Origin: a virus
Lineage: Duplodnaviria > Heunggongvirae > Uroviricota > Caudoviricetes
Reading direction: 5' to 3' (one strand)
Virus record (IMG/VR): IMGVR_UViG_2531839675_000021
DNA length: 4,237 nucleotides
Position numbers: made by a program. Positions 1 to 3,000 of the stretch are shown one piece after another (the first letter of the stretch is position 1; each line of letters starts with the position of its first letter).

Positions 1-3000
1 TCAAATGACCAGTTTTTTCCATTCCTTACCGCGTGCGTCGTTGTAAATATCGGTCATTTTTTGATTCGAATGGCCTAGCAAAATTTTGGTATCAACCCCC
101 TGCTCTCTGAACAATCGCTCTGATAAAGATCTCTGCTCATGGAAAGAGGGAGGGGTGCCATTAGCACGCCAGTTGTAATCCACAGAATCCCGGGCTTTTT
201 TAAATGCAACGGTTAATGTTGCTGGCTTAACCATCCCGCCGCGCTTAGCTGTCCCTTTCGCGTGATGGTGGTGCAATAGCCACGGACTAAGAACGCAATC
301 GCGGCAGGATGACACCACATCATCCAGGGTGAGATTTAATTTATCGCAACGCAGAGCCAGAGGGATGGCAATCCGGGTTCCTGTTTTTTGCTGTTCGACA
401 TGAAGATAACCATCCCGGATATCCGAAAATTGCATTTTGCAAATATCTGAAAGGCGCTGGCCTGTCATCAGTGCCAGCAGCATACCGCGCTGTAAAAAGT
501 AACCATCCTTTTCCGCTGCGTTATAAATCATCATCCACTCATCAAAAGTCAGTCGCTGTCTTGATATCCGCACCTGCGGTTTTTTTGCCGATTCTGCAGG
601 GTTAAAGCCTGGCGGGACATCGCCCGTTTGCTGAGCTTCCCGGAAAACATCGATCAGTACTTTCCTGAAAATTTGTCCCATTCTGTTATGTCCTCTGGCC
701 TTGTACTCTTCCAGTACTGATACCACATCTTTTACGGTTATGGCATCTAACGGTCTGGTGCCAAAACGTTCATCAAATACCCTGAGAGGGGCCGCTTTCT
801 GTTTCAGCGTGTTGAGTTTGATCTCGCCGTTTTCATATCTTTCCTGTTGAATTTTTCTGTAATTATTCAGAAAAATGGTAACGGTTGATGAACCGCCGGT
901 ATCACTAATAATTTTCTCCTGCAGACTGAGCATTTGTTCCATTTGCTGCCGGGCAAGACGGCTGTTCGCTTCTGCTGCAATAGTTTCTGCCAGTTTCTGG
1001 TCAATACTGCCGAGACCGTGATTTTTGCCTGTTATGGGATGCCTGTAACGCCAGTAAACTTTGTTATTTCTTTTGTCAAAATACGGAGATAATCCCGGAA
1101 CATCGGTTTTATATTTTCGCGGGCGCGCCATCTTCCAGTATCCTCTTCAAAGCAGGGTGATCTGTGGCGATCACCTCCGGCTTGTTTACCATTCCGACAA
1201 AGCGAGCTTGCGGATCCACTCGCCAGCGTCTTCCAACTTTTTTGGGGAGAGGAAATATCATTCCGGCTTTAGCGTATTTACTTAACGTACTCGGAGTTGG
1301 GACCGGTTCACTGAATTCCTCTTTTGCCCACTCAGTGAGCAGAATAAGTCTTGCCATGAGCGTCGTTCGCTAATCATGGTCGCCGCCACTATAGCTGGTG
1401 GGCAACGACCGGGGTTGAACATTAAAAATCAGCCTGATTCGGGATCAGTTTTTGCCAGATAACTGAAACGTATTTTGCCTGGTAACGGGCGTCATCAAGT
1501 GCATTATGGCGCTCACCTTCGAATGGAATAGCCGTTCTGGCATCGAAGTCTATGGCTTTCCCCAGCTCAACGATTGTGCGTACATCGCGATCGTTGTAGT
1601 AACGCCACGGGCAGGGGATCCCCTGCCGTTCGTATGAACGGCGCAAAATCGTGTTGTCGAAGTTGGCTCCATTTCCCCAGACCTGAACAAAAAATTCACC
1701 GGAGTTTTCGTCGATAAATTCCCGCAATTGTAACAGTGCATCATCTAACGGGATTTCATCGGTCATAATGGCAGATTGCGCTTCGCGTGATTGCTTAAGC
1801 CACCATTTAATGGTGTCCCTCGCCGTGTGCTTTCGTGTTGTGTGCCTGCTTTTTACCACGTCAGGCGAGGTGGTCCCCGTTATTCCCCAACAACAAGGAT
1901 CTTGTTAATCTGGATATCCCCAACAACAATAAGAGTATTGAATGTGATCGCTGAATTAACGGCAGCAATGACGGCTATTCGTGAAACCGCCCAGATTGCA
2001 AAACTAATGAACGAGGCAAAAACTCAAGCTGAAGTAAATGCGGCTATTGGTGAACTGAACTCAAAGCTTGCATCTATTCAGCGCGAATGCGTGTCTCTCG
2101 TTGAGCTGGTGGGCACTTATCAAGAAATAAATGCTTCTCTCAAAGCTAAAATTGCAGAATTTGAAAACTTTGAGGCTCAGACGGAAGGTTATATCCTTAG
2201 CCAACTTGAGTCGGGAACTTTTGTGTACTCGAAGGAGGTAACCGTGAACGGCGGCAGCATAATCATGCATCTTTGTCCAAAATGTTTTGGACAAAAGATA
2301 GTATCGATACTTCAGCCATTCCCGGTTAGAGAATATGAATTTTTTCATAAAAGCAGGTGCCTGTACTGTGAAAATCAGTTTCTTATGAATAAAAATCCGG
2401 ATTACGTATCACCTCCATCTATTGAAGAGTTGGCCAGAAAACTGAACGGCAATCTGTAGATTTTTACTGTTATGGATATCCAGATTGTTAAAGAGCATGC
2501 CGGATGCTTGCTTGTGTCCGGCGCGTGTGCACCACTCTCCCCCCGTGGAGGATTCCTTAATTACCAGATTTCATTAGTCAGAGTTTCTTGCTAACCAGCG
2601 ACGCGCGCCAGATTCGGTTTTAAACGTTTTGCTTTTGGTATACGTCATCGCGGTGAACGTGCCGTCCTGGTTGGGAAACACGCCGCACACCAGAGATTCG
2701 TTGTTGCCAAGATCAAGAGTATCCATGCTGACCTCATATCCCCTTAACGCCGGGGTAGCGGAACAAAAACCTGCTGCATAGTTAAAGTTGAACCCTGCCG
2801 TCATGTTCTTACGCCTCGGGCTGGCTACTTAATCCCTGACCACTGCCGGGTAACTCTAGGTATTGCCCTGTATTGTGTGGGACGGGATGGGTTGGTATGG
2901 GAAAACTATAGGAAATGCCTAATTGCTTGTCAATAGGCTACGCCTAATGATTTGGGTGCGACCTAATAGGTGATGGTTTGTGGGAGAGGTAGTAGGAGTT

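Follow-up and report, generated by a model that had tools for sequence, protein, structure and literature searches.

What stands at the head of the leftward early operon in a Rac/Qin-like lambdoid prophage, and what becomes of the leftward transcript when it meets a gene on the opposite strand? Both questions are raised by IMG/VR virus record IMGVR_UViG_2531839675_000021 (Caudoviricetes), of which we analysed a stretch of 4,237 nucleotides (nt), called the window throughout, that comprises the left arm and immunity region of such a prophage. A first-pass annotation had read the first leftward gene as an unusual 76-amino-acid (aa) protein facing an orphan gene. We find that the feature is a ydaF/ydfA-type gene encoding a 50-aa DUF1391 protein and that it is the promoter-proximal gene of a RacR-repressed leftward (PL-type) operon, and both conclusions are well supported. 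The full explanation that we favour, in which this 50-aa gene heads a RacR-controlled operon, boxA gives the transcript passage beyond it and the protein has an early accessory role, is on balance probable. The earlier observation is partly confirmed and its interpretation partly supported.

Identity and start codon of the DUF1391 gene

The following features define the gene and its leader, all on the (−) strand:
2574–2804 (−): target open-reading frame (ORF) in its 76-codon reading
2574–2726 (−): DUF1391 gene proper, 50 codons plus TAA, MDTLDLGNNESLVCGVFPNQDGTFTAMTYTKSKTFKTESGARRWLARNSD, defined by Pfam, RefSeq and conservation
2731–2735 (−): Shine-Dalgarno sequence GAGGT, 4 nt before the core ATG (2726–2724), read from the sequence
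2727–2804 (−): in-frame leader upstream ORF (uORF) of 26 codons, MTAGFNFNYAAGFCSATPALRGYEVS, source of the 76-aa reading
2814–2817 (−): weaker Shine-Dalgarno sequence GAGG, 9 nt before the outer ATG (2804–2802), read from the sequence
2740–2755 (−): small hairpin CCCC-GGCGTTAA-GGGG, present in the centroid fold

The 76-codon frame from ATG to TAA is present on the (−) strand at 2574–2804 and matches the sequence quoted for it, the protein itself is shorter. Pfam model PF07151 (DUF1391) is matched at 103–105 bits against a gathering cut-off of 27.3 (E-values 7e-30 to 2e-30), the model is covered in full (1–48 of 48), and the match takes in residues 28–75 only of the 76-aa ORF. The RefSeq coding sequence WP_001414141.1 of Escherichia coli EDL933 is the 50-aa form and maps to 2574–2726 of the window. 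The K-12 homologues YdaF and YdfA are each 51 aa long and share 42 (84%) and 44 (88%) identical residues with it over 50 aligned positions (hand count), whilst the nearest relatives in the protein collection are at least 88% identical.

Start codons and codon-position variation among the relatives also indicate 50 aa. We compared 100 DUF1391 loci from genomes and viral contigs, 68 of which were distinct for the start-codon count, and an inner ATG (here at 2726) with GAGGT was found in 66 of the 68; GAGGT itself is conserved within a nucleotide block common to Rac and Qin. Variable sites are distributed over the three codon positions as 13/12/39 in the core, compared with 2/1/0 and 7/10/11 in the extension, and the ratio of non-synonymous to synonymous polymorphism (pN/pS) is 0.154 in the core and at least 0.59, up to infinity, in the extension. 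By this measure the 50-codon core is clearly under purifying selection. Judged from these sequence comparisons, the 76-aa length is an over-extension and the gene consists of the last 50 codons only.

The 76-aa reading is due to a leader uORF, served by a weak ribosome site of its own, which in this lineage happens to share the gene's frame. The context of its start codon, CCCGAGGCGTA(A/T)GAAC-ATG, is kept in RacR-type leaders, and a TAA at 2746–2744, inside the small hairpin, is the uORF stop in other lineages. The C-run at 2752–2755 (CCCC vs. CCC) acts as a switch: a change of 1 nt there decides between a fused and a separate uORF, and both states are common among the relatives. In 52 loci the outer ATG is missing, whilst 23 have it in frame and about 20 out of frame; in the out-of-frame loci the uORF has 18–20 codons and stops at the TAA 17 nt before the core ATG, and in several loci it stops after 4–7 codons. 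K-12 Rac differs in that a 1-nt indel puts the uORF out of frame and an extra gene, the 44-aa ydaG, is inserted between promoter and ydaF; Qin differs in that its leader lacks the outer ATG, whereas here the uORF is fused in frame. Translation of the uORF as such might matter, through coupling or through shielding of the leader from Rho. The uORF peptide is not conserved among the relatives.

Could the 76-aa protein nonetheless be the functional product, with its 26 N-terminal residues a lineage-specific functional extension? We consider this unlikely. The frame is open, with GAGG 9 nt upstream of the outer ATG, gene callers give forms of 76–79 aa in large clusters (e.g. P0007, with 725 members), PHROG 751 includes ~18 extra N-terminal residues, and a 3-nt indel in the extension (N vs. 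NN) keeps the frame. Yet in about half of the leaders with the outer ATG a 1-nt indel or early stops interrupt the frame of the extension, the ATG is missing altogether from the 52 loci counted above, and the extension exhibits no codon-position bias at a pN/pS of at least 0.59. One variant reads the middle of the extension in another frame (MTAGTLCITAQQVF), and both the Pfam model and RefSeq begin at the inner ATG. The extension is also predicted to be disordered: in the AlphaFold model of the long form, residues 1–26 lack secondary structure, with a block-mean predicted local distance difference test score (pLDDT) of 39–57 that falls below 50 at residues 1–17, whilst the remainder has the same core as the model of the 50-aa form.

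Nor is the protein unusual, as had been supposed. The DUF1391 gene was found in 3729 of 5426 complete E. coli genomes (69%), in up to 6 copies per genome, and is itself already known as a very common prophage family without characterised function; ydfABC and ydaFG are described as being of unknown function (PMC5069750, PMC10448788, PMC11014345). Measured against the condition first set for refuting the observation, clear homology to a well-characterised lambdoid early protein, it does have clear homologues, though these are themselves uncharacterised. As first stated the finding matters little: it is a rediscovery of ydaF/ydfA with the wrong start codon.

The RacR-repressed leftward operon

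Three further features place the gene under RacR control:
2933–2905 (−): PL-type sigma-70 promoter, TTGACA-17 nt-TATAGT, 11 of 12 consensus matches
2902–2952 (no strand assigned): operator-like repeats of the TAGGnnnnnGCCTA type, with 25-nt spacing, overlapping the −35 and −10 elements (repeat family D1, inverted pairs I1–I3)
3042–3518 (−): racR repressor gene (NCBIfam NF049929, 247 bits vs. a cut-off of 200; RefSeq annotation)

The claim that this is the first leftward gene stands, as the gene lies behind the TTGACA-17-TATAGT promoter with operator repeats that are shared with PR, on the same strand as racR and directly downstream of it. Two operator-like repeats at PL match three repeats at PR (3541–3611), a 26-nt inverted repeat links the −35 regions of the two promoters, and the same promoter architecture aligns in K-12 Rac. 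In the racR-ydaS intergenic region of K-12, three repeats and three RacR-DNA complexes have been reported (PMC5700373), and when racR expression is lowered in K-12, ydaF and ydaG rise ~40-fold and kilR, ydaC and ralA >70-fold (PMC6765115, PMC11014345). The dicBF transcript of Qin, which DicA represses, has ydfA as its first gene (PMC10448788).

The relatives repeat this arrangement. Of 96 DUF1391 loci, 65 have a RacR- or DicA-like gene just upstream on the same strand, and in 65 of 70 the same strand carries dicB or kilR downstream; as the order of repressor upstream and dicB/kilR downstream recurs among the relatives, the layout is standard for Rac/Qin-type prophages. The gene here resembles ydaF of Rac and ydfA of Qin in its product length of 50–51 aa, in its same-strand place just after the repressor gene, and in standing at the head of an operon that leads to kilR or dicF-dicB. 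On loss of RacR, transcription would start near 2897 and cross a C-rich leader of ~170 nt to the core ATG, as the K-12 RNA data would support, and DUF1391 would be translated from the ATG at 2726.

The first ~50 nt of the predicted leftward transcript (2850–2897, (−) strand) are very C-rich, G-poor and unstructured, with a GC skew of +0.33 to +0.45 on the (+) strand, a composition as would be expected for a Rho loading site. Folding of the leader RNA against shuffled sequences gave no structured leader RNA, the leader being less stable than the shuffled set (z +1.5), and an Rfam scan of the whole window at E ≤ 1 gave no matches. An exact 13-nt direct repeat, GGGTTGGTATGGG, occurs at 2889–2901, at the predicted leftward start, and again at 3278–3290, inside racR; the similarity of the pair extends on one side, and by a rough estimate ~0.005 such pairs are expected by chance in this stretch of 781 nt.

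Hairpin, boxA and the convergent gene

Beyond the DUF1391 stop codon the leftward transcript would meet three features:
2499–2522 (−): hairpin GCCGGA-12 nt-TCCGGC, 1 nt before boxA on the leftward transcript, read from the sequence
2484–2497 (−): perfect rrn-type boxA, TGCTCTTTAACAAT, one match in the window
1944–2459 (+): convergent 171-aa gene, a RefSeq coding sequence

The DUF1391 gene is indeed convergent with a (+) strand gene, which ends at 2459 and leaves a gap of 114 nt between the two stop codons. It had been argued that leftward transcription must stop or collide within ~115 bp, and this is not supported. In a sister locus (L021) the order RacR-DUF1391-171-aa gene is followed by dicB-ydfD on the DUF1391 strand, so the operon continues beyond the convergent gene; a terminator scan between the convergent genes found none, and the gap contains boxA. 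Leftward transcription probably does not stop after the DUF1391 gene.

The boxA is 77 nt 3′ of the DUF1391 stop, and 25 nt separate it from the end of the convergent gene. It lies in the untranslated gap, a stretch that would be transcribed given the promoter and the K-12 expression data. Its 14-mer TGCTCTTTAACAAT exactly reproduces the E. coli rrn boxA together with the first base of the spacer, as found in the rrn boxA-spacer sequence ugcucuuuaacaau (PMC2724277, Table 1), and GCTCTTTAACA within it fits the functional consensus GYTCTTTAANA (PMC5725501). A boxA-like 12-mer with at most one mismatch matches once in the window, where 0.02 matches are expected by chance. The same 12-mer search found boxA in 13 of the 100 DUF1391 loci, in all 13 on the DUF1391 strand and always just before the 3′ end of an opposite-strand gene. 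These opposite-strand genes are of three types, namely the 171-aa gene, a relative with 31% identity to it and an unrelated gene of 148 aa, and across the three the distance between boxA and DUF1391 takes three different values. Such strict conservation of strand and of position before convergent genes lends indirect support, and the only such support, to a possible role of the element in binding NusB/NusE and SuhB and in suppressing Rho-dependent termination. Among the relatives the stem of the hairpin is kept and its loop is variable; the exact hairpin-boxA pattern occurs in 42 viral contigs, and in 38 of these a convergent ORF ends 11 or 25 nt later. Phage PhiR29_1 has the promoter, the hairpin and boxA, followed by the antisense of a homologue of the 171-aa gene, without DUF1391.

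According to two reports, rrn boxA binds NusB/NusE and blocks Rho-dependent termination without a phage protein (PMC4807359, PMC5725501), and BoxA protects CRISPR arrays from Rho (PMC7665894). The present element is like the boxB-boxA-boxC of the rrn leader in its identical 14 nt with a hairpin just upstream, and like the leaders of CRISPR arrays in placing BoxA in untranslated RNA ahead of a long untranslated stretch (PMC7665894); it differs from rrn, the suhB 5′ untranslated region and CRISPR BoxA in its setting within the early operon of a prophage, where a convergent protein-coding gene comes directly after it. By analogy, the candidate boxA may be a Nus-factor site that shields the leftward transcript from Rho. 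The transcript would meet the hairpin and then the perfect rrn-type boxA, which would recruit host NusB/NusE together with NusA, NusG and SuhB, and RNA polymerase would then pass through the untranslated antisense of the convergent gene and escape termination by Rho. The genes so reached would be dicB-ydfD in intact relatives, and an exonuclease remnant, xis and int here.

Two other observations concern the same stretch. An antisense ORF (MLFNNLDIHNS...) starts from an ATG overlapping boxA and runs to 134–145 codons in loci L023, L058 and others, probably an artefact of the convergent gene; here it has 28 codons only (2414–2499, (−) strand). In K-12 Rac (locus L002; 3406–3503, 3672–4312), sieB runs convergently towards ydaF, the two overlapping by 4 nt at the end of ydaF, and the annotated small RNA kilS lies between sieB and kilR.

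Relative to lambda, the gene resembles N in its map position with respect to repressor and PL, and a boxA-type element, as in nutL, lies on the same transcript. It differs from N in having no sequence similarity, no Arg-rich motif and a folded rather than disordered product. No nut site lies between promoter and gene, and whereas the boxA of lambda nutL is 5′ of boxB, boxA here is of rrn type, follows the gene and is 3′ of the hairpin. Scans of Pfam, PHROG and NCBIfam gave no N-family similarity, only DUF1391 and unannotated PHROGs, and there is a single arginine in the first 26 residues of the long form and none in the first 30 core residues. The earlier view of a protein unlike lambda N, without an Arg-rich N-terminus, is borne out. 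The accompanying claim, that the leader has no nut-like element, is borne out too, as no boxA-like 12-mer (≤1 mismatch) was found between PL and the gene; a perfect boxA does exist after the gene.

That DUF1391 is a functional analogue of N, an RNA-binding protein that recognises the hairpin by boxA and loads Nus factors, is highly improbable. The shared map position and the boxA on the same transcript would suit it, yet boxA accompanies DUF1391 in only 13 of 100 loci, the Qin and K-12 Rac copies of DUF1391 stand without boxA (12-mer, ≤1 mismatch), and PhiR29_1 shows the reverse, with promoter, hairpin and boxA and no DUF1391. The lack of an Arg-rich motif, the occurrence of the domain inside polyvalent proteins of plasmids and phages, and the reported action of rrn boxA without any phage protein all speak against it too. 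The two K-12 copies thus differ from the present gene, after which the hairpin-boxA follows.

The convergent gene is no orphan. It is a member of phrog_1244, its product is HkaP-like, being 28% identical to HkaP of HK620, related also to HK629/HK630 and ~30% identical to proteins of the Pseudomonas Mu-like phages DMS3, JBD30 and D3112, and it combines a coiled-coil N-terminal half with two CxxC pairs; PADLOC gave no defence match and NCBIfam no match at all. Its slot is variable, holding sieB in K-12 Rac, ydfB-ydfC in Qin, an unrelated 148-aa gene or others elsewhere, and the convergent gene is a movable ‘moron’ at the place that K-12 Rac fills with sieB. A role for DUF1391 as partner (as had been proposed), antidote or regulator of the 171-aa protein is extremely unlikely. 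The two genes are adjacent and convergent and keep identical spacing (+269/270) in 7 loci with at least three immunity types. Against this, only 8 of 99 DUF1391 loci have the 171-aa gene, ydfB/ydfC, sieB or the 148-aa gene filling the slot elsewhere, and the 171-aa gene occurs without DUF1391 in PhiR29_1, where it adjoins cI, in HK620, in HK629/630 and in the Pseudomonas Mu-like phages; a dedicated partnership is unlikely because of this low co-occurrence and independent occurrence.

The remainder of the window holds:
1–1131 (−): int
1109–1357 (−): xis
1422–1859 (−): C-terminal remnant of a large RecE-like 3′-5′ exonuclease (PHROG/Pfam matches, RefSeq pseudogene)
3643–3966 (+): ydaS/cro-like gene
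after the ydaS/cro-like gene, at the window end: ydaT/cII-like gene, 5′ start only

The exonuclease remnant matches only the last ~140 positions of PHROG profiles of 264–823 positions and the last ~130 of a 177-position Pfam model, and is given in RefSeq as a pseudogene without N-terminus. Relative to the sister locus L021, which carries dicF/dicB/ydfD, the remainder of the early-left operon is deleted here down to this remnant, which puts the deletion junction at ~1860–1940, just left of the 171-aa gene; PL here would read into the remnant, xis and int. Bases 1413–4237 are 100% identical to the potC-adjacent prophage of E. coli O157:H7 EDL933 and of many O157 strains, bases 1–1819 (the int-xis-exonuclease part) are 100% identical to PPompW-type phages, and the two identical blocks overlap within the exonuclease remnant. 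No complete E. coli genome of the collection holds >80% of the window, which is therefore a mosaic of known pieces.

Fold, domain spread and possible role

The profile search and structure prediction that had been suggested for the protein identified the family as DUF1391 and gave an AP2-like fold with scores that are not significant. AlphaFold models the 50-aa form with strands at 15–18, 24–27 and 32–35 and a helix at 38–49 (pLDDT 78), a three-stranded antiparallel sheet packed on a C-terminal helix; the predicted fold can be counted as three or four strands plus a helix. The AP2 and integrase-arm domains (plant ERF, phage HNH-AP2, Arm-DNA-bind_4) have the same three-stranded sheet on a C-terminal helix and share the core pattern GV..(4)..G.F.A...(n)..F.T...A. 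AP2 domains superpose at 1.2–1.3 Å over 36 residues with 28% identity, at scores that are not significant, and the best viral fold matches, also not significant, include phage HNH endonucleases. AP2 domains are frequent in such endonucleases. Aligned profile to profile with plant AP2 sequences entered by hand, the family falls into the expected register (P 0.02), and 2 of 52 DUF1391 members touch Arm-DNA-bind_4 in a weak match (E ~0.04). As these signals agree but are individually weak, we keep the AP2-like fold as a lead only. Foldseek against the PDB gave nothing below E 0.4, and PADLOC and NCBIfam gave no match for the protein. Sequence searches of the PDB with two profiles yielded no more than a 19-residue likeness to the head decoration protein of phage 21 and to HisF: the first pairs core residues 21–39 (2610–2666), DGTFTAMTYTKSKTFKTES, with EGTETALTYYKSGTFATEA of 1TD0 at E 0.015, probably by chance, and the HisF resemblance is also judged to be chance.

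The domain is far more widespread than the Pfam description suggests, with 326 cluster representatives at E ≤ 1e-3 in an exhaustive profile search that share the family motif D-[LM]-G-N-N-E ... G-[VI]-F ... D-G-T-F-x-A-x-T ... S-K-x-F-K-T-x-x-G-A-x-x-W-L. It is found inside proteins of 440–935 aa with DarA_N (P0193, P0199, P0201, P0202, P0215) and inside proteins of ~500 aa with ArdC_N and DUF3560 (P0197, P0233). P0197 and P0199 are each located on a metagenome contig, of which that of P0197 carries a phage-integrase gene. These combinations are typical of the polyvalent proteins of phages and conjugative elements, a class described by Iyer et al. 2017 (PMC5512222), in which a search for the terms YdaF, YdfA and ‘1391’ found no mention. 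The copy here differs from them in being solo and in coming from expression under a repressor-controlled promoter, not from delivery along with the DNA. In other phages, solo copies are surrounded by small early genes and have Lar-like, DUF4942 and DUF932 genes as neighbours; the contigs of two distant solo homologues, P0163 and P0249, were too short to be informative on context. IncI plasmids have, next to ibfA, a ‘ydfA’ that shares the name but is another gene.

What might such a protein do? As the domain sits in polyvalent ‘entry’ proteins with DarA_N and ArdC_N, a role at entry or induction, in counter-defence or DNA protection, suggests itself, and a tentative possibility, our best guess, is that DUF1391 acts immediate-early, binding nucleic acid or a host factor and so aiding the element at these stages. 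It would be a non-toxic, compact module of the AP2/integrase-arm type with an invariant N-terminal GNNE motif. The bolder joint reading, in which the hairpin-boxA is an N-independent antitermination site and DUF1391 a minimal AP2-like module shared between elements, is doubtful as a whole.

Two further roles are suggested by the gene's place in the operon. DUF1391 could be a host-killing or division-blocking early protein like Kil, KilR or DicB, being a small early-left protein whose gene, in 65 of 70 loci, shares a transcript with dicB-ydfD or kilR. When dicBp was derepressed by the antirepressor Rem in a strain without dicB and dicF but with ydfA, growth reportedly was not inhibited (PMC10448788), and unaffected growth with ydfA still expressed argues against a toxin, as does the retention of the gene, in up to six copies, in 69% of E. 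coli genomes; constructs of a Plac-driven dicBF operon with dicB and dicF deletions have also been described (PMC5069750). Toxicity is unlikely, and this role as a whole is highly unlikely. Alternatively, DUF1391 could resemble lambda cIII, protecting the CII analogue YdaT by inhibiting FtsH or another protease and so biasing the choice between lysis and lysogeny. Its size and its place in the PL operon are those of cIII, and the immunity region encodes a YdaT/CII-like protein. The Pfam scan, however, gave no cIII similarity, beta structure, not an amphipathic helix, makes up most of the predicted fold, and the domain also occurs with DicA-type immunity and inside polyvalent proteins from conjugative elements without CII; we regard a cIII-like role as very unlikely. 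We infer that DUF1391 serves neither as an antiterminator nor as a toxin, and that the convergent gene is not its partner.

Several points weigh against the account given here, of a 50-aa operon-head protein with an early accessory role and a boxA that carries the transcript past the convergent gene. A minor 76-aa isoform is possible in this lineage, because the outer ATG has a usable ribosome site and reads in frame into the gene. K-12 Rac has no boxA and still expresses kilR past the convergent sieB when derepressed; as no boxA-like sequence was found around its sieB/kilS region, it must cross sieB another way. The hairpin-boxA may alternatively be part of the convergent genes' 3′ flank. DUF1391 carries no net charge, and the arginines through which plant AP2 domains contact DNA are missing from it, which makes DNA binding doubtful; in the hhalign alignment other residues stand in place of the ERF contacts, the contact Arg/Trp of AP2/ERF is not conserved, and DUF1391 differs further in its extra GNNE and in having no net positive charge, though conserved K33, K36, R43 and R47 might substitute for the ERF contacts. 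Its occurrence in polyvalent proteins is an association and not a function, and our literature search turned up no DUF1391 protein that had been the subject of an experiment.

Only the boxA and the polyvalent-protein link may be new in this analysis. The gap that it exposes is an operon-head gene, present in about two-thirds of E. coli genomes and under purifying selection, for which no function experiment was found in the literature; the AP2-like fold and the presence in polyvalent proteins provide first concrete hypotheses for DUF1391, under which, if true, the module acts on DNA or on a host defence factor as the element becomes active. If the reading of boxA is true, the host's ribosomal-RNA Nus complex lets the PL transcript cross convergent morons to reach dicB, kil, xis and int, which would explain the tolerance of lambdoid prophages for genes inserted against early transcription. 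The boxA could show how a prophage without N keeps early transcription going through an opposite-strand gene, and it bears on how the cell-division inhibitors DicF/DicB and KilR are expressed in O157:H7 and other strains.

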